64,000 nt of DNA from Eledone cirrhosa (Eukaryota), in the NCBI GenBank assembly GCA_964016885.1, contig CAXHJY010001592.1, positions 8,071-72,070 on the forward strand, read 5' to 3'. Shown one piece after another: positions 7,585-64,000 of the stretch. Under the pieces are notes generated by a model. It ran no database searches. It was given only the letters and a program-made list of their open reading frames with translations, and was not told the origin of the DNA. Each line of letters opens with the position of its first letter. Positions within the stretch are counted from its first letter, which is position 1. The translations under genes were made by a program, and so were the position numbers.

Positions 7585-7628
7585 AATATTGGACTAGTTT
7601 CGATGTATTACATCTCATCAGCAATATT
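7585..7628 (-). ncRNA. Minimal hammerhead ribozyme, family 1
   Basis: Reverse complement of the 8419-8463 motif with a 1-nt deletion in stem-loop II. Confidence 0.8.
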
Positions 7629-8052
7629 TACCCATCTTCCGGCTTCTCTGGAGAATTGTAAAAGCACATATCGTTATATGCTTTTTCTATGAAAATTAGT
7701 AGTGGGTAGACCAATTTGCATAGAACGTGAGTTATTGTACGCACCGGTTCAGCGGAAACGATAAAAACAAATAACGAAACGAAATTAAATTTCGTTTCGC
7801 TTCTAACTCACTTTTGTATGACTGACGCTTAAACAATTAAGTTAAAGTGTACATCTACATATGTATACGGAAGTATTAGTATGCATATAAATACACACAT
7901 GTATACATATGTACATGTACTGAGTTTTTCACTAGACACTTTACAGTGAGTGTCAGCTAGTCTGTATGTAACCACACAGATGGACCGGGTTTTAGAGTCA
8001 TACGAGTTTTCAAGGAAAAACATTTCCTCTATTCTCCAGAGGGCCAGACAGG

Positions 8053-8097
8053 AATATTGGACTAGTTTCGATGTTATTACATCTCATCAGCAATATT
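8053..8097 (-). ncRNA. Minimal hammerhead ribozyme, family 1
   Basis: Exact reverse complement of the 8419-8463 motif. Confidence 0.85.
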
Positions 8098-8418
8098 TAC
8101 CCATCTTCCGGCTTCTCTGGAGAATTGTAAAAGCACATATCGTTATATGCTTTTTCTATGAAAATTAGTAGTGGGTAGACCAATTTGCATAGAACGTGAG
8201 TTATTGTACGCACCGGTTCAGCGGAAACGATAAAAACAAATAACGAAACGAAATTAAATTTCGTTTCGCTTCTAACTCACTTTTGTATGACTGACGCTTA
8301 AACAATTAAGTTAAAGTCACGTTCTATGCAAATTGGTCTACCCACTACTAATTTTCATAGAAAAAGCATATAACGATATGTGCTTTTACAATTCTCCAGA
8401 GAAGCCGGAAGATGGGTA

Positions 8419-8463
8419 AATATTGCTGATGAGATGTAATAACATCGAAACTAGTCCAATATT
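8419..8463 (+). ncRNA. Minimal hammerhead ribozyme, family 1
   Basis: aatattg-CTGATGA-GATGT aata ACATC-GAAA-CTAG-TC-caatatt: full catalytic core, 7-bp stem I, palindromic CTAG in place of stem III, GUC cleavage triplet. Confidence 0.9.
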
Positions 8464-8890
8464 CCTGTCTGGCCCTCTGGAGAATAGAGGAAATGTGTTT
8501 CCTTGAAAACTCGTATGACTCTAAAACCCGGTCCGTCTGTGTGGTTACATACAGACTAGCTGTAAACACTCACTGTAAAGTGTCTAGTGAAAAACTCAGT
8601 ACATGTACATATGTATACATGTGTGTATTTATATGCATACTAATACTTCCGTATACATATGTAGATGTACACTTTAACTTAATTGTTTAAGCGTCAGTCA
8701 TACAAAAGTGAGTTAGAAGCGAAACGAAATTTAATTTCGTTTCGTTATTTGTTTTTATCGTTTCCGCTGAACCGGTGCGTACAATAACTCACGTTCTATG
8801 CAAATTGGTCTACCCACTACTAATTTTCATAGAAAAAGCATATAACGATATGTGCTTTTACAATTCTCCAGAGAAGCCGGAAGATGGGTA

Positions 8891-8935
8891 AATATTGCTG
8901 ATGAGATGTAATAACATCGAAACTAGTCCAATATT
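8891..8935 (+). ncRNA. Minimal hammerhead ribozyme, family 1
   Basis: Same motif as 8419-8463. Confidence 0.9.
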
Positions 8936-9159
8936 CCTGTCTGGCCCTCTGGAGAATAGAGGAAATGTGTTTCTTTGAAAACTCGTATGACTCTAAAACC
9001 CGGTCCGTCTGTGTGGTTACATACAGACTAGCTGACACTCACTGTAAAGTGTCTAGTGAAAAACCCAGTACATGTACATATGTATACATGTGTGTATTTA
9101 TATGCATACTAATACTTCCGTATACATATGTAGATGTACACTTTAACTTAATTATATAT

Positions 9160-22957: not shown

Positions 22958-24640
<1,683 letters not shown>

Positions 24641-24661
24641 TAAATAATAATTTTTTTCTGT

Positions 24662-25332
24662 ATACGAGAATAAATCCAGGATGCAGTTGCAGGAAGCCGG
24701 ATGAATGCCCATTGCAGGGTAAATGTAACACCAAATCTGTTGTTTATGAGGCTAAGATAACACCGGTAATCAACAACCAGCCAGCCAGGAGTGAGCGATA
24801 TGTCGGTATGACCCAGGACAGGTTTAAAACCAGATTTTACTCACATGTCGCTTCTTTTAAGCACTCCGATAAACGAACATCAACACCCCTCGCAAGTAAG
24901 GTGTGGGAACTCAAGGATAGTAACATCCCGTACTCTATTGATTGGTCTATATTAGACCATTCGAGCGAGTACCAAAGGGGCACGAAGAATTGTTCTTTGT
25001 GTACCACAGAAAAGTATAGGATTTTGCTAAAATTGAGAGCCACTTCCGCTTGCCTTAACTCAAAGACTGAGATCTTCAGTTGCTGTCCTCATCTGAAATC
25101 GCATCTGATCTGTAACTGGATTGACACTCCTATGATAAATCAACCGCCTTGAACTCCTTCTCTGCTCTTTACTTCTGGTACGGTTTTTATTTTGCTGAAT
25201 CTACGTTCTGTACTCTTGTATATATATTTTTTTCTCCCTTACCTCCCCTTATATTTCACCTTTTCCTATGTCCCCCCCCCCCATATATTCTTTTTGCCTT
25301 GCCCTTCACATACCTATGTGTATGTGTATGTG

Positions 25333-36743: not shown

Positions 36744-36800
<57 letters not shown>

Positions 36801-36838
36801 GAAATATAAGAATCAAAGAACTGTTCAAAACATTATTG

Positions 36839-36885
36839 TGCTTACAGCTGTTTCCTCCAAACCGAGGTTTGGATTCTTCGGAGCA
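36839..36885 (-). ncRNA. Hammerhead variant (CCGAAGA core) in the PLE tail
   Basis: Reverse complement of 41781-41827. Confidence 0.65.
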
Positions 36886-38328
36886 ATTTATTAATGCATG
36901 GACAGTTATATGACCTCCTTTTCAGCCGAGAGACATACCAATACATATTCAAACATTGATACATATTCAAACATTGTGGGTCAACATTCATTACAAAATT
37001 TAGAGTGGCAGTACACACTTCGAGATTACATTTATATTAATAGGTACAATCAAAAATCAAAGATATAGGTTAAAGTACAACATGAAGATAAGTGGTTATA
37101 TAGTGCAAATGTTATATGTGTGGCACGCATGTGCGTCTTGTTTATATAGTGTGGCAGAGAGATATGTGTGGTAGAGGCACTTAGGTAGGTAAATAAGAGT
37201 GTTAGGTTGGTAGATCTGGTGGCAAAGTCTTTATATGATTGATGTAGTCTGTGTGTGGAGAAATATTATAAGCATTAAAGATAGTGCAAGCATTAAAAGT
37301 GTTATAAGTATTGGAGATGCACAACGCAGGGATGTCAAGTAATTCATGTACTTCGGCATTTTCATGGTCAAGGGAGTGTATATTTCGATTATATGCCTTT
37401 CACATAATCCACGACAATCCAGTTAGAGATCGTAGTCTGGTGTTCTTTAGTTCGATACAGGAGGTTGTTACGTTTCGAGAGACGCCATTGAATACCGGAA
37501 GTGTGTGTGTGGCTAAGGGGAGTTAATGCATGCGGGGAGGTAACTCTGGGGTTTCTATATCTAGCCATTAAAATGTGTCCCAATATGGACCCTAAATTCT
37601 ATGGTGAGGTGCACCTTCCAAGAGAGACTTTTAAAGCATAAAGTGTACTAACTATAGAGTAGTTTAACTAAATTATGCTGAAGGTGATCATATTATTATT
37701 AAGGTGGATTAACCCATCTTAAGGTGCTACAAATGGAAATTATAGATGATGAGCGAGGATTCTAAATTAATGATCTCTGTGGTTGTAGTCTGCTCATATG
37801 ACCAGGCGCGGTGATTGCAGGATTGCTTCAGGACCCAATGATCTCTGGTAAGATCTGGGTCATCGCTTGCTACATTGGATGTCGAAAGATAATCGTCCCC
37901 AGGCAGGCCAAAGGTCAATCCGCAGTCCTCGCGACCCCTCTCTGACCGTCAGATCATCCATATACGTACAACCCGCACGGCAGTTGCATTGCATTCACTC
38001 ACTGCGCTCAGCAGCCCGGTCCTACTGGTCAACAGCGCTACTCGATTAAATCATTTTACATCTGTCTAAGGAAGGTGTTTCCTCTGCCCAACACCATCCA
38101 ACCGATCAATTCATGCTCAAATTACCCTTAGAGCGGTGTAGTGCCGTCCAGGTGGGTGGATGTTGTCACACCTGCCGTAGAGGTATAAATGGGTATTTTC
38201 CCTGCGAAGGGTTCCAGAGGGATGTCGTTGTTTGTGTTATAATGGATCAGCTAGTGTTGGGTATGTAGTATAGGGTGTGTCTCTGGTGTTTGATGCTAGA
38301 TGTGGTGTTAGGTTCCAGTCCGACATTG

Positions 38329-40680
38329 CTATATATAGGGCTTAAAGTTTTGGAAGGAATGTCTGAGGCGGTGTTGGCAAGTTGCAAACACCTCCGATTT
38401 TTTGTTAAGTAGGTTACGGTTGGAGAAGATAATATTGTGTGTCTCTAGTATACAGAGGTTACAGAATTTATTAGGTGGTTTGTACGAGGTCGCGCTGCCT
38501 ATCACTTCCCATTTGAGTGTGTATGGTTTATTTTTAGATTTTAGATAGTGTATGTAGCTAGAAAGTGAGGTGGAGTTGGCTAGGCTGTGCTTTTTGAACG
38601 AGTGGATGTGCGAGTTATATCTAATTTTGAAGCAGTTAGAAGTGGAGCCTACATAGGTTTCTGAAGAGTTATTAGTCGTGACTGTGCATGAGTATATGAC
38701 ATCCTTGGTTAGGCATTTTTTATCTAAAGGGCAGGTTCTATTAGCTCTACAGTTACAATTATTCTGTGCGTTAGTCCGCTGGTTATAATGCAATGCGGAA
38801 GTCTGTGTGGTGGATATAGGATTTTGGGTGTTCAGGTTGACAACCCTGGTGTTATTACTTATACTAGTGTTATTTCTATTGTTACTGCCGTTGCTATTGT
38901 TGCTTGCTACAGTGGTATTTAGAGGGTTTGCATCCCGTTGTGATTTTGTTTGTTGGAAGTAAGAACTAATTTTACTATTATTGCTGCTAGCTATGTGGTA
39001 TGCTAAGTTAGGCGTCGTAGAGTATGAGATTTTAATGGTGTTTTTGTTTAAGAGGTTGTGGTACTTGTGTCCTAGAGGGAAGTTTTTATCTAGTAGTGAG
39101 AAGAAAGCCCTAGGTATGTTGGTGGAGACATTTAGGTTGAAAGGAGGGTTGAAAAATGTATTATTTCTTCTTCTATTTTTGCTTTTAGTGTTTGGTGTGT
39201 TGCTTCCTCCTAAGGCCTCACAGTAGTTTCCATGGTAATGGTTACTTCCGGTGGCACCCTCCGCTTTGGTGTACTTGTGGTTGCTATTCCTATTATTAGA
39301 TTTCCTCATGGACATGTTGTGCGAGATGATGTTGTAGCTATGTGTTTTCTTAGGTAGGAACTCTATTTCTATATTATGGCCGGAGCTAGCTAATGCTTGA
39401 TTGTAATATTGTGAGTTTTTGCTAAATATGTTTGCGTCATAGGACAGACTAGAGATTCTATTGGACACCCCCTTAGAGATAGAGTTTAATATTGATCTAG
39501 GGTGATTAGACTTGGTATCTACGTAAATAAGTTTCTCATTAGGCTTATGGAAAGGTGTATATATTTTTGAGTCTAGGTATAGTGTGGCGTCAAGGAAGTT
39601 AACATTTTTAGTGTTTTTGTCCATGGTGATACTAAGGTTAAAGTTTTTGAATGTCTTATGCAGTTGTTTTCTAGTTCTTTCTATATTAAATTTTTTATAT
39701 TCTATGAGTAGAAGTGCATCATCGCGGTACAAACCACCGTTGAGGTAAGGGAGGTCTTTATGGATTTCATTGAGGAGGTATAGGCCGACCAAATCAGTGA
39801 CCTGCGCCGAGTCACTAGATCCCATGGTTATGTCGAAGTTGTTGTGCGTATCCTTGCGTGTCCATAGTTGGTCCTCGAAGGTGATTATGGTTTTACGGGC
39901 CGCAAGGATGACATCAACCTGGGCTCTAGTCAGGTCGCTATTGGTCATGGCCATGATAAGTGCCTTATTTAATAGGATAGGGGAAATAGAGGTGTAGTAT
40001 GAATTGATATCAAATTGAATAAATTTTTTGTTCTTATTATTCTTGATATCCTTAAACCATTCAATTACTTCACCCGTATTTCCCCATTGTTTAAGGTGTA
40101 TCTTGTGTTTAATTTGTGGGATGATTTTATCCAAAATCTTCTTGCTGATAATACCAATGTCGGACTTGGAAGGGCAGATAAGTCTTATCGTGGGGTTGCT
40201 GATGAAGTTCTCCTTATGGTCCTTCAGAGAGAATCTAGGGGGGTTCGGAGTGAAAGGTTGTGTATGCCTCTGTAGTCCTAGTTTAGACACTATATTATAA
40301 CCCTCTACATTAATATCTTCTAAGTTTTTCAAGGTGGTTTTTTTGTAGCTTTTATGTAGTTCATTATATATAAACTTTCTATAAGTAATATAATCTAGGC
40401 TGTATATGTTATTAGTTTTATCTGCGTGTACAATAATTTTATTACTAGTTTTGAATCCACTAATAGAAGTGTTAAGTTTGTTTAAGAAGGTGTTGCTTCT
40501 AATATGGTGCTTATTGTATTTAATGTTCTTAACTAGTTTAACTAGGTCATTTTCAAAGGAGTTAATTAGAGTGTTATGAGGGGGGCTTTTAAAGGTTTTA
40601 AAGCCGAAGGAGTCAAAATTGTTAGTATTATTCAAGTTGTTAGATTTGTTTCTATCATAATGGAATGTCCTCCATCTCAC
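38329..40680 (-). CDS. Penelope-like reverse transcriptase + C-terminal GIY-YIG endonuclease (783 aa, N-terminally truncated)
   Basis: ADKTNNIY, LKDHKENF...IRLICP, FIQFDINSYYTSI, TMGS, LYRDD, VNFLD, SNHP; CNC...CPLDKKC...VIY...YVGST...RYNSH; CNLCILE...LN..SE. No internal stops; GTG start only ~14 nt from the inversion junction. Confidence 0.95.
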   Translation of the reverse strand: MRWRTFHYDRNKSNNLNNTNNFDSFGFKTFKSPPHNTLINSFENDLVKLVKNIKYNKHHIRSNTFLNKLNTSISGFKTSNKIIVHADKTNNIYSLDYITYRKFIYNELHKSYKKTTLKNLEDINVEGYNIVSKLGLQRHTQPFTPNPPRFSLKDHKENFISNPTIRLICPSKSDIGIISKKILDKIIPQIKHKIHLKQWGNTGEVIEWFKDIKNNKNKKFIQFDINSYYTSISPILLNKALIMAMTNSDLTRAQVDVILAARKTIITFEDQLWTRKDTHNNFDITMGSSDSAQVTDLVGLYLLNEIHKDLPYLNGGLYRDDALLLIEYKKFNIERTRKQLHKTFKNFNLSITMDKNTKNVNFLDATLYLDSKIYTPFHKPNEKLIYVDTKSNHPRSILNSISKGVSNRISSLSYDANIFSKNSQYYNQALASSGHNIEIEFLPKKTHSYNIISHNMSMRKSNNRNSNHKYTKAEGATGSNHYHGNYCEALGGSNTPNTKSKNRRRNNTFFNPPFNLNVSTNIPRAFFSLLDKNFPLGHKYHNLLNKNTIKISYSTTPNLAYHIASSNNSKISSYFQQTKSQRDANPLNTTVASNNSNGSNNRNNTSISNNTRVVNLNTQNPISTTQTSALHYNQRTNAQNNCNCRANRTCPLDKKCLTKDVIYSCTVTTNNSSETYVGSTSNCFKIRYNSHIHSFKKHSLANSTSLSSYIHYLKSKNKPYTLKWEVIGSATSYKPPNKFCNLCILETHNIIFSNRNLLNKKSEVFATCQHRLRHSFQNFKPYI

Positions 40681-41780
40681 TCTATTGATAAATGTTGTAC
40701 GTATATGGATGATCTGACGGTCAGAGAGGGGTCGCGAGGACTGCGGATTGACCTTTGGCCTGCCTGGGGACGATTATCTTTCGACATCCAATGTAGCAAG
40801 CGATGACCCAGATCTTACCAGAGATCATTGGGTCCTGAAGCAATCCTGCAATCACCGCGCCTGGTCATATGAGCAGACTACAACCACAGAGATCATTAAT
40901 TTAGAATCCTCGCTCATCATCTATAATTTCCATTTGTAGCACCTTAAGATGGGTTAATCCACCTTAATAATAATATGATCACCTTCAGCATAATTTAGTT
41001 AAACTACTCTATAGTTAGTACACTTTATGCTTTAAAAGTCTCTCTTGGAAGGTGCACCTCACCATAGAATTTAGGGTCCATATTGGGACACATTTTAATG
41101 GCTAGATATAGAAACCCCAGAGTTACCTCCCCGCATGCATTAACTCCCCTTAGCCACACACACACTTCCGGTATTCAATGGCGTCTCTCGAAACGTAACA
41201 ACCTCCTGTATCGAACTAAAGAACACCAGACTACGATCTCTAACTGGATTGTCGTGGATTATGTGAAAGGCATATAATCGAAATATACACTCCCTTGACC
41301 ATGAAAATGCCGAAGTACATGAATTACTTGACATCCCTGCGTTGTGCATCTCCAATACTTATAACACTTTTAATGCTTGCACTATCTTTAATGCTTATAA
41401 TATTTCTCCACACACAGACTACATCAATCATATAAAGACTTTGCCACCAGATCTACCAACCTAACACTCTTATTTACCTACCTAAGTGCCTCTACCACAC
41501 ATATCTCTCTGCCACACTATATAAACAAGACGCACATGCGTGCCACACATATAACATTTGCACTATATAACCACTTATCTTCATGTTGTACTTTAACCTA
41601 TATCTTTGATTTTTGATTGTACCTATTAATATAAATGTAATCTCGAAGTGTGTACTGCCACTCTAAATTTTGTAATGAATGTTGACCCACAATGTTTGAA
41701 TATGTATCAATGTTTGAATATGTATTGGTATGTCTCTCGGCTGAAAAGGAGGTCATATAACTGTCCATGCATTAATAAAT

Positions 41781-41827
41781 TGCTCCGAAGAATCCAAACC
41801 TCGGTTTGGAGGAAACAGCTGTAAGCA
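41781..41827 (+). ncRNA. Hammerhead variant (CCGAAGA core) in the PLE tail
   Basis: tgct-CCGAAGA-atccaaacc tc ggtttggag-GAAA-CAGCTG-TA-agca; palindromic CAGCTG at stem III. Confidence 0.65.
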
Positions 41828-42345
41828 CAATAATGTTTTGAACAGTTCTTTGATTCTTATATTTCATATAACTGCTCTGTAAATCATCTGATGTTTTTAC
41901 ATTGAGCTACTTAACTTACTGGTAATAAGGTAGTAATACATTACTGCCTACCACTATTTAGGGTGTGTGTAAAATACTTACAACTGCTTAAGGTTTTGTG
42001 TTTACATAACCATAAATAGTATAACTAATACTATATATATATATAAACTAATTATCCATATTAAAAAAATTGTTTATAAGCCATAAATAAAAACGTACTT
42101 CCTCATCCGTTTTTACATGTCGTGGTCTTTGCCTATCAAGATCTCACGTTCAATCAACTACTACAACATCAAAAAACTATGTAGCCAAACCACAGTTGCC
42201 GTAATATGTGATTGAAAGCAACGATGCTTAATTTCATCAAATGCTTGCTAAAAAAAAAGACAACATATCGTTACCATATTTCTAATAAAAGATTCTGCCA
42301 ATGGTTTTCAATTCATTTTGAAAATAATCAATACTTTAGAGTGAT

Positions 42346-44012: not shown

Positions 44013-44017
<5 letters not shown>

Positions 44018-44205
44018 ACGAGTAGGACCCCGACGGCTGAGCTCAAGCCGTTTCGACGGCTAATTCTGTCCAGAATTAGCCGTCGAAACGGCTTGAGCTC
44101 AGCCGTCGGGGTCCTACTCGTTCCTATTACCCACTCTACTACCCTAAGTATTGAGTACTTTGGTGCGTTATGGTCCATCTGGTTCCTTACCACATTTCCT
44201 TCGTT
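44013..44205 (+). mobile_element. Hairpin element, copy 1 (near-perfect ~114-bp palindrome + ~80-bp tail) in (TA)n
   Basis: 44013-44126 is self-complementary; tail acccactctactaccctaagtattgagtact... is shared with the other two copies. Strand is nominal. Confidence 0.8.
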
Positions 44206-44310
44206 ATATATATATACAGGATGTTATACCGAAGAGGAACAGAATGTAACCAATACATTAAGTAAGAACGTACATGAAACATTTCCAGACATGTAGAATT
44301 CATTTCTATA

Positions 44311-44528: not shown

Positions 44529-45750
<1,222 letters not shown>

Positions 45751-48545: not shown

Positions 48546-48665
<120 letters not shown>

Positions 48666-48887
48666 AATTAAGTTAAAGATGTACATCCATATATGTATAC
48701 TGAAATACTAGTATGTATATGAATACACACACGTATACATATGTAGATGTACCAAGTTTTTTCACTGGTCACTTTACTGTGAGTGGCCAGCTATTCTGTA
48801 TGTAAACACACAGACAAACCGGTTTTTAGAGTCATACTGGTTTTTGAGGAAACACCTTTCCTCTATTCTCCAGAAAGCCAGACAAGG

Positions 48888-48932
48888 AATATTGAACTAG
48901 TTTCGTTGTTGTTACAACTCATCAGCAATATT
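48888..48932 (-). ncRNA. Minimal hammerhead ribozyme, family 1b
   Basis: Reverse complement of 49700-49744 with one loop change. Confidence 0.8.
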
Positions 48933-49699
48933 TACCTATCTTCCGGCCTTTCTAGAGAATCGTAAAAGCACATATCGTTATATGCTTTTTCTATGAAAAT
49001 TAGTAGTGGGCAGACTAATTTGCATAGAGTGTGAGTAAGTACCGGTTCAACGGAGACGATAAAAACAAATAACGAAACGAAATTAAATTTCGTTTCGTTT
49101 GTAACTCACTTTTGTATGACTGACGCTTAAACAATTAAGTTAAAGATGTACATCCATATATGTATACTGAAATACTAGTATGTATATGAATACACACACG
49201 TATACATATGTAGATGTACCAAGTTTTTTCACTGGTCACTTTACTGTGAGTGGCCAGCTATTCTGTATGTAAACACAGACAAACTGGCTTTCTGGAGAAT
49301 AGAGGAAAGGTGTTTCCTCAAAAACCAGTATGACTCTAAAAACCGGTTTGTCTGTGTGTTTACATACAGAATAGCTGGCCACTCACAGTAAAGTGACCAG
49401 TGAAAAAACTTGGTACATCTACATATGTATACGTGTGTGTATTCATATACATACTAGTATTTCAGTATACATATATGGATGTACATCTTTAACTTAATTG
49501 TTTAAGCGTCAGTCATACAAAAGTGAGTTACAAACGAAACGAAATTTAATTTCGTTTCGTTATTTGTTTTTATCGTCTCCGTTGAACCGGTACTTACTCA
49601 CACTCTATGCAAATTAGTCTGCCCACTACTAATTTTCATAGAAAAAGCATATAACGATATGTGCTTTTACGATTCTCTAGAAAGGCCGGAAGATAGGTA

Positions 49700-49744
49700 A
49701 ATATTGCTGATGAGTTGTAGCAACAACGAAACTAGTTCAATATT
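49700..49744 (+). ncRNA. Minimal hammerhead ribozyme, family 1b
   Basis: aatattg-CTGATGA-GTTGT agca ACAAC-GAAA-CTAG-TT-caatatt. Confidence 0.85.
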
Positions 49745-50414
49745 CCTTGTCTGGCTTTCTGGAGAATAGAGGAAAGGTGTTTCCTCAAAAACCAGTATGA
49801 CTCTAAAAACCGGTTTGTCTGTGTGTTTACATACAGAATAGCTGGCCACTCACAGTAAAGTGACCAGTGAAAAAACTTGGTACATCTACATATGTATACG
49901 TGTGTGTATTCATATACATACTAGTATTTCAGTATACATATATGGATGTACATCTTTAACTTAATTGTTTAAGCGTCAGTCATACAAAAGTGAGTTACAA
50001 ACGAAACGAAATTTAATTTCGTTTCGTTATTTGTTTTTATATATATATATATATATATACATACATACACATATACATTATCTCATACATAGGCCACATA
50101 CAAACATAAACACTGTAGTGTCAAATCAAGGTAGTTTATCAAGTTCAGTGCTATTTGCATTAGATCTTATATATTAGTTTCGGATTTAGACACAAGGCCA
50201 GCAATTTGGGACGAAGTGGAAGTTGATTGAATTATAATATAATTGACATGAAAAACAAACACATTCAATTTACTAAATCTCACAATGTCATGAAAAACCA
50301 TTGACATTATATAAAAAATAATTGAGCAATATCTAATAAAAACAAAGAACACTATTAAAGGGAGCAACAAAAGAAGAAAAAGGAAATGAAGAGAAGAAAG
50401 AGAAAAATGTGTCA

Positions 50415-57100: not shown

Positions 57101-57420
<320 letters not shown>

Positions 57421-57424
57421 ATAA

Positions 57425-59642: not shown

Positions 59643-59857
59643 TCAGAAAGGGTGTGGTAAAATACCAGGTTGACCATAAACCCAACAGAGTACTCGATAC
59701 TTGGGGTAGTTAGTGGGTACTATGAAAAGATTCAGGACCCCGACGGCTGAGCTCCGGTCGTTTCGACAGCTAGATTCGAACAATCTGTCGAACAGCTGTT
59801 CAGATCTAGTTGTCGAAACGCCCGGAGCTCAGCCGTCGGGGTCCTGAATCTTTTCAT
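59643..59857 (-). mobile_element. Hairpin element, copy 3 (diverged)
   Basis: 59722-59857 palindrome; homologous tail on the minus strand (acccactaactaccccaagtatcgagtactctg). Confidence 0.75.
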
Positions 59858-60022: not shown

Positions 60023-60248
60023 TCTTTTCCTGTTATTTCAAGCGTTAAACTAATATATTTCTTCAATCTACTGTGTCGTTTATATAGGATATAATGCTCG
60101 ACGGTGTAGCTTAAACCGTTTCGGTGGCTACATGATTTAAGCTTGACCGCCGGGAATTATACCCAATATCTGTATATAGCCTATTTAGTTAATTATGGAG
60201 TTCTAAGTTGAATAACGCTGTTACTGGGCTTAACTAGTAACATTTCTC

Positions 60249-64000
<3,752 letters not shown>

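Follow-up and report, generated by a model that had tools for sequence, protein, structure and literature searches.

Short palindromic repeats of Eledone cirrhosa as probable run-off insertions of a hammerhead-bearing Penelope-like element

In a 64,000-nt stretch of the Eledone cirrhosa genome (contig CAXHJY010001592.1, positions 8,071 to 72,070, called the window below), three hairpin repeats of about 200 bp were noted at 44013, 57230 and 59643 in an initial annotation, each described as holding half a hammerhead ribozyme, GAAA-stem III-GUC, mirrored on both strands. All three are confirmed here with refined limits. The question they raise is why a repeat should consist of half a ribozyme and the mirror image of that half. 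The answer we favor, with a probability of roughly 0.86, is that the hairpins arose as short head-to-head insertions of a Penelope-like element (PLE) of Hydra type, made by priming on both strands of cut (TA)n and by run-off of the complementary DNAs (cDNAs) at a likely capped start in loop II of the element's own hammerhead.

Positions are numbered from the loop II motif TTAGTC, whose A is +1, and the longer relatives that carry the complete ribozyme are called parents. On this numbering the copies read as follows.

44015..44206, + strand: copy 1, read as a head-to-head mini insertion of a Penelope-like element, subfamily B, with (TA)n on its flanks
44015..44068, - strand: inverted tail-less arm of copy 1, parent positions +5 to +58, overlapping the direct arm by 1 base
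44068..44124, + strand: direct arm of copy 1, parent positions +2 to +58, from alignment to parents and pair counts
44085..44107, + strand: hammerhead G12 to A14, stem III with a palindromic GAGCTC loop, and the GUC triplet of copy 1, from the sequence
44125..44206, + strand: tail of copy 1, about 82 nt; in the full-length elements L138 and L196-L225 the tail continues into the 5' untranslated region (UTR) and the open reading frame (ORF)
57230..57421, + strand: copy 2, subfamily A, with inverted arm 57230-57281 (to +7), direct arm 57282-57339 (from +1) and tail 57340-57421
about 59643..59857, - strand: copy 3, subfamily C, with tail about 59643-59721 and tailed arm 59722-59781 (from +2)
59798-59857, + strand: tail-less arm of copy 3, starting at +2, by comparison with the C-type parents L095 and L102
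59782..59797, no strand: 16-nt filler between both arms of copy 3, similar to parts of the arm next to it when set against C-type parents

Each copy consists of an inverted arm without a tail and a direct arm followed by the 82-nt tail, and lies between simple repeats that are mostly (TA)n. With the centers included, copy 1 matches its own reverse complement at 106 of 110 positions, copy 2 at 104 of 110 and copy 3 at 118 of 136; the fold of copy 1 has an energy of -126.9 kcal/mol (z = -16.3), which 0 of 200 shuffles equal. The direct arm of copy 1 contains the end of loop II, the stem II 3' strand, GAAA, stem III, GUC and the stem I 3' strands, and GAAA-CGGCT-tgagctc-AGCCG-TC-GGGGTCC is found at 44085-44114. 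The predicted cut is after 44107, and a second palindrome class, treated below, is centered on the same bond. The half-core is thus present in copy 1 as described, with its mirror image in the place of the core 5' strand, and the outer arms do differ between copies while all terminating at one point before the tail. Their complementarity is not covariation, both arms being copies of one subfamily sequence, and the central hairpin, which had been taken for native stem II, is an inversion product, the native stem II 5' strand being absent from the hairpins. The weakness reported for stem III is seen in copy 3, where its cause is two different changes at one position on the two arms; C-type parents related to copy 3 retain 4 to 5 of the 5 pairs. 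The 16-nt filler of copy 3 is presumably an insertion of end-joining type. Rfam gives no hammerhead at the half copies and solely weak microRNA-type matches, among 150 of the 251 rows of matches.

Longer relatives hold the complete core, which makes the half seen in the hairpins the 3' half of a genuine hammerhead, as had been proposed. They are missed by the search then recommended, for CUGANGA upstream of the hairpin. That motif has 48 matches, and the 30 inspected are mixed junctions that join unrelated DNA, fillers and other repeats, share no upstream sequence and form no family of relatives. One match, L058, revealed sequence upstream of the palindrome center, and the search from there led to a pseudo-long terminal repeat (pLTR) and then to an ORF. 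The parent sequence is ACCCC-TTGANAA-G..CGGCTATTT-loop-AAATAGCCG-TC-GAAA-stem III-GTC-GGGGT, a predicted complete type I hammerhead, core and stems I to III, in which U3-A8 replaces C3-G8; because the core is UUGANAA and not CUGANGA, the recommended search passes it by. The U3-A8 variant is reported from Schistosoma PLEs (PMC4209133; this and the other papers cited are drawn on through parts of their text). One form of the parent core has 500 exact matches, and N7 varies as A, G or T between subfamilies in 110 parent copies taken from loci with a core-like pattern. In 21 hand-picked rows, 93.8% of 499 cells are paired and 3 stem II pairs are changed on both sides, values that are inflated by related rows. 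One of three parents folded, L113, goes unprompted into the three-way junction. The 200-bp hairpins lack the 5' strands of the core and of stem I and have the inverted arm instead. The hairpin family is therefore no new half-ribozyme, but the short insertions of a hammerhead-bearing element.

As to what that element is, the longer relatives extend into the pLTR and an ORF with YRDDG, DKT, CxC-x5-C, VIY..YIG and CxxC..CxH, so that the suggested Penelope-like membership is borne out by relatives with an attached ORF encoding reverse transcriptase (RT) and then GIY-YIG. L138 is a decayed monomer of 2,861 nt (2.86 kb) with a start at about -10, and its arm and tail continue into the 5' UTR and ORF. 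The motif order in L138 and the raw translations of 60 loci give a single ORF with RT before GIY-YIG; the motifs read are SDKT (L138, L165), RWR, CNCPDRSTC, VIYQC..YIG with one Cys, and CNLC..EE..N..CKH. The pLTR with the hammerhead inside it, the inverted 5'-truncated copy and the tail at one end are those of endonuclease-bearing (EN+) PLEs. DKT, the RWK-like motif, the CxCX5C linker, the absence of CCHH, and CxxC and CxH around E and N are the protein features of the Hydra clade, and a length under 3 kb and insertion at (TA)n are found as well. The canonical CUGANGA hammerhead described for that clade, which is no diagnostic protein feature, is replaced by UUGANAA. The atlas ranks GIY-YIG-bearing clusters first, with a top match of 0.96 and GIY-YIG on 27% of the cluster members. 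Neptune was dropped as a label after the motif check, the endonuclease CCHH and CX2-5CxxC linker being absent; the endonuclease CCHH of Poseidon is likewise missing from the parent motifs, and the motif order of L138 does not have the endonuclease N-terminal to RT as in Naiad/Chlamys. On these motifs, the parent is classified as a Penelope-like retrotransposon with Hydra-clade protein motifs.

The window has further sequences of these kinds. At 36796-41870, - strand, a related and apparently near full-length Penelope-like element lies between 1,177-bp perfect inverted repeats, with an ORF region at about 38338-40692 that is 38-56% identical in amino acids to L138 in tblastx pieces. At 23776-25293, 632-bp inverted arms carry endonuclease-side ORF pieces similar to L138, and this reads as a longer head-to-head insertion of another family. 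The same head-to-head layout is found at 44594-45588, with 490-bp inverted arms, a 15-nt center, one-sided extension and (TA)n past the right arm. Canonical CTGATGA hammerheads belong to another repeat family at 7600-9158 and 48661-49971, with long inverted repeats and one-sided extension; HH9 matches there, below the gathering score, are at 8038-8108, 8408-8478, 8880-8950, 48872-48943 and 49689-49760. A distant arm relative at 60085-60150, - strand, has the half core GAAA-CGGT-loop-ACCG-TC, ends in TATA and probably belongs to a fourth family. From 60200 to 64000 there are about 3.8 kb of nearly pure AT low complexity with a GC content of 0.4-5%.

Copy 1 alone has 1,073 candidates genome-wide, and by exact patterns the 3.0-Gb genome has short palindromes at no fewer than 15,251 sites and arms at no fewer than 67,602, with 0 matches to the reversed-pattern controls for both. 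The tallies below of centers, of tailed against tail-less arm lengths and of cut-control loci were counted by hand. The first 100 arms on contig C1, unselected and all fetched, with an anchor that leaves out arms shorter than +18, have 16 ends at -10..-1, 49 at +1..+10 and 14 at +11..+18, with 3 at -11..-60 and 18 further upstream, which puts 79 of 100 within -10..+18 (p = 8e-32). The commonest ends are +1 and +2 with 11 each. Since the longest arms of copies 1, 2 and 3 begin at +2, +1 and +2, all three copies in the window fit a wall at +1. Among 30 ORF-bearing copies, 6 begin at -10..+10, 12 reach at least 60 bases upstream and 12 start downstream or are rearranged. The word TYAGTY at the wall, which we take to resemble an animal initiator, is conserved across subfamilies A, B and C, in a loop II that otherwise drifts. 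Where both subfamily-A arms stop at +1 with one extra base between them, that base is G or C in 46 of 50 loci (the first 50 of 149), and 61 of 64 parents carry T at -1. Copying of the cap is known from other retroelements. The extra G/C looks like a cap footprint, for which cap copying is the simplest reading, and together with the wall it makes +1 the likely transcription start and the arms likely run-off cDNAs.

At two loci, L257 and G000:C1:55270256, the palindrome center is occupied by 16-17 bases of poly(A)/poly(T) filler, which suggests untemplated addition of A at run-off. The direct arm and tail of copy 1 are 97% identical over 149 nt to the long relative L120. Along L120, the depth of contigs from runs X1 and X4 drops 20- to 40-fold past +1, and X5 and X6 each or together give a few pieces; since depth in contigs does not measure copy number and X1 may derive from the source sample, this drop is not counted as evidence.

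The first 50 unselected centers give 40 distinct strings, the copy-1 center occurring in 6 and the copy-2 center in 5, each in subfamilies A and B; hence each palindrome was made anew, in agreement with the earlier proposal of regeneration at every insertion. Of 31 palindromes, 8 were unclassified, and of the 23 that could be classified 22 have one tailed and one tail-less arm. In 22 palindromes with both arms measured, it is the tailed arm that extends further 5' in 9 cases and the tail-less arm in 10, with 3 equal. A longer tail-less arm is compatible with two cDNAs, each primed on a different strand and from its own internal start site, and PAc, the Poseidon element of Anolis, is described as priming in vitro on both strands with two internal RT start sites (PMC11167929). 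A palindromic insertion at L058:1340-1570 has arms with the ends of different subfamilies, suggesting two RNA templates in one event. In the flanks of L021 and L026 are short solo tail-less arms with (TA)n on both sides and ends near GAGCTC or TTTCGA.

The second class of palindromes is centered on the predicted GUC cut, with at least 389 loci in the pattern search. Among the first 50, both arms stop exactly at the cut with untemplated filler in 24 and without filler in 8 more; one arm goes at least 3 bases past in 10, one arm is at or near the cut with the other past it in 4, and both are past in 4. A control that allowed shorter arms gave 171 loci of one subfamily, overlapping those of the pattern search. 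In its first 50, an arm reaches the cut in all 50, both arms are shorter in 0, and no arm goes 2 or more bases past the cut in 44. RT stalling at the foot of stem III would put the ends one base beyond this wall. Single fillers at the cut are A or T in 10 of 11, opposite to the G/C at +1 (p = 1e-7). The tail and (TA)n layout are the same in 15 of 15 loci viewed, and the ORF-bearing L197 has its first base directly after GUC and a very small inverted arm that ends at the identical base. The cut class is small, a few percent of the +1 class, and the two patterns cover different subfamilies. From the cut-site wall we infer that cleaved, uncapped RNA served as template and that self-cleavage would have occurred in the germ line, so that the cut-centered hairpins suggest genomic evidence of ribozyme cleavage in vivo.

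A mechanism that would give both classes is as follows. The promoter would start RNA inside loop II, and such RNA would hold just the 3' half of the ribozyme. The element protein would bind near the RNA 5' end and prime twice at a (TA)n break, once on each strand, with RT copying from two internal start sites near that end; the two cDNAs would run off after about 60 and about 140 bases and be united by end-joining. Priming at the 3' pLTR copy would give the long insertions, and read-through RNA would carry the whole ribozyme and sometimes be cut at GUC. A broader proposal, which we regard as fairly probable on the evidence of the junctions, is that with the promoter inside its own ribozyme the pLTR-started RNA would be incapable of self-cleavage, and that germ-line cutting of read-through RNA, which holds the whole ribozyme, at GUC would supply a second, uncapped template that was reverse-transcribed, full-length copies such as L197 included. 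The run-off hairpins, in tens of thousands, would then be a base-resolution fossil map of the start, the cap, the cut and both RT starts, and direct genomic evidence of PLE hammerhead activity in vivo.

Several points weigh against the insertion reading. The start site, the cap and the cleavage are all read from junctions in DNA, and a one-base filler cannot separate cDNA+C from cDNA+G. Many arms, mostly of subfamily B, pass +1 by 3-5 bases into TTT, so the start may spread over -5..+1 or RT may add A's, and the TATA-like word near -30 is missing in subfamily C. In stem II, pair 38-77 fails to form in 8 of the 21 rows, and the fold z-scores of the three parents are weak, -1.3 to -1.9, with two lacking the hammerhead as best fold. 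Pfam on 7 broken ORF pieces and PDB on 1 gave no useful match. The samples consist of the first places listed on contigs C1-C3 and were selected by exact patterns. Both arms are usually of one subfamily, which leaves one RNA template and two indistinguishable.

The other explanations can be held against the same junctions. The initial annotation offered, as one of two readings, cDNA snap-back at stem II, by which a single tail-primed cDNA would copy itself and rebuild the palindrome, and the 1-3 bases of microhomology often seen at centers, the subfamily variants usually common to both arms, and the self-priming proposed for palindromic Penelope junctions in the parts seen of PMC3846280 would all suit it. 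We nevertheless find it quite unlikely. The center is in loop II at the likely start, hairpins lack the native stem II 5' strand, untemplated filler can separate two arms that both stop at +1 or both stop at the cut, and a fold-back has no reason for the fixed stop of the second arm before the tail. The tail-less arm is the longer in 10 of 22, which folding back of a single tail-primed cDNA cannot give, and this contradicts fold-back as the general route. Very unlikely, too, is that the wall at +1 marks no transcription start but a place in loop II where RT stalls, a splice acceptor lies or a nuclease cuts. TTTAG has the look of a 3' splice site, introns may be present in Penelope pLTRs (PMC4209133, in part), and the ends are scattered over about 20 bases, but the peak is at +1/+2, not +3, no common upstream exon is found, the wall sits in the loop beyond the stem II strand, TYAGTY is kept in three subfamilies while the loop drifts, and the switch from G/C filler at +1 to A/T at an uncapped cut is the one a cap predicts.

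It is about as improbable that a few master mini-elements, as a non-autonomous, SINE-like (short interspersed element) Penelope derivative, are transcribed whole and copied as units. The 30 best matches to copy 1 share their ends and nearly all have the same center at 98-99% identity, and the internal promoter of D. virilis Penelope, as given in part of PMC2377424, means that short copies might be transcribed. Those 30 were chosen by similarity, however, while unselected centers are diverse, and one center turns up in more than one subfamily and in either orientation with respect to the tail (compare L094 and L098); minor secondary copying of mini-elements may occur. Scarcely credible is a DNA-transposon MITE (miniature inverted-repeat transposable element), or a host-maintained family of half-ribozyme or double-stranded RNA genes, the latter close to the earlier idea of a stable family kept as a trans-cleaved substrate or double-stranded RNA source. 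The repeats are short, high-copy, hairpin-forming and TA-flanked, and a read-through transcript would give a 50-bp duplex. Against this, there are no terminal inverted repeats at both ends, the 82-nt tail lies outside the palindrome, all parts are colinear with an RT-encoding parent, and the centers are not conserved, which speaks as well against a stable family. The initial annotation named as refuting its view the lack of any relative with a complete core together with a match to a known MITE; relatives with the complete core exist, and the parent refutes a MITE.

Head-to-head insertion with run-off thus remains the preferred account, and parts of it were known. PLEs with inverted copies, tails, hammerheads in the pLTR, U3-A8 and internal promoters are described in the portions consulted of PMC3846280, PMC4209133, PMC8557442 and PMC2377424, and the role of the hammerhead in endonuclease-bearing PLEs is stated there to be unclear (PMC8557442). 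In the open literature, with subscription journals and supplements outside the scope, no account was found of run-off hairpins, cap footprints, a start inside the ribozyme or cut-site junctions in PLEs, and the word hammerhead does not occur in the passages taken from the O. vulgaris repeat paper (PMC13282606). What is added is that insertion junctions stop to the base at the predicted cut, and at a capped-looking start inside the ribozyme, which makes the open hammerhead question testable from DNA alone in any genome rich in PLE copies. A very abundant MITE-like hairpin repeat would be explained, and searches by CUGANGA only are seen to overlook whole PLE families. The hairpins are ordinary as a repeat and valuable as a record of mechanism.

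Retroviral strong-stop DNA is a run-off cDNA, L1 has inverted two-primer insertions by twin priming and a cap-derived extra G, and the 5' ends of R2 are set by a hepatitis delta virus (HDV) ribozyme. The element works like strong-stop DNA, L1 twin priming and R2 junctions and is a member of none; unlike in these, the run-off products themselves would be integrated by the tens of thousands. D. virilis Penelope is similar in having a promoter with an initiator inside the pLTR (PMC2377424, in part), whereas here the start is mapped solely from insertion junctions and neither a downstream promoter element (DPE) match nor an intron is seen. The excerpts on PAc (PMC11167929) describe AT-rich DNA that is cut, both strands extended, two internal RT starts that define the tail, and use of mostly uncleaved RNA, all of which is like the element here. 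The RT start sites differ, being within the ORF in PAc and in the 5' UTR here, and those excerpts report no RNA-seq reads starting or ending at the hammerhead cut, where hundreds of insertions end in this genome.

Among ribozyme-bearing elements, Schistosoma Cercyon and other PLE hammerheads share the type I fold in the pLTR, the U3-A8 covariation, the G10.1-C11.1 pair and the palindromic loop 3, by the text available (PMC4209133); here stem III has 5-6 pairs, so dimerization is not needed, and the likely start site is inside loop II. Non-LTR retrozymes (bioRxiv 10.64898/2026.07.22.740005, seen in part) are likewise non-coding, pLTR-related, hammerhead-bearing repeats, with complete ribozymes in head-to-tail tandems. 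We rejected that identity, as the hairpins are head-to-head, lack the core 5' strand and form no tandem units with a complete hammerhead each. The closest likeness is to the Hydra clade as the sections used of PMC8557442 present it, with elements under 3 kb, a single ORF with RT before GIY-YIG, DKT, RW(K/R), the CxCX5C linker, no CCHH, CxxC/CxH around E and N, (TA)n targets, an inverted 5'-truncated copy and a one-sided tail. The differences from that clade are the U3-A8 core, long stem II and stable stem III in place of a canonical hammerhead, a tail of about 82 nt against 30-40, and the fact that most insertions here read as 200-bp run-off hairpins.
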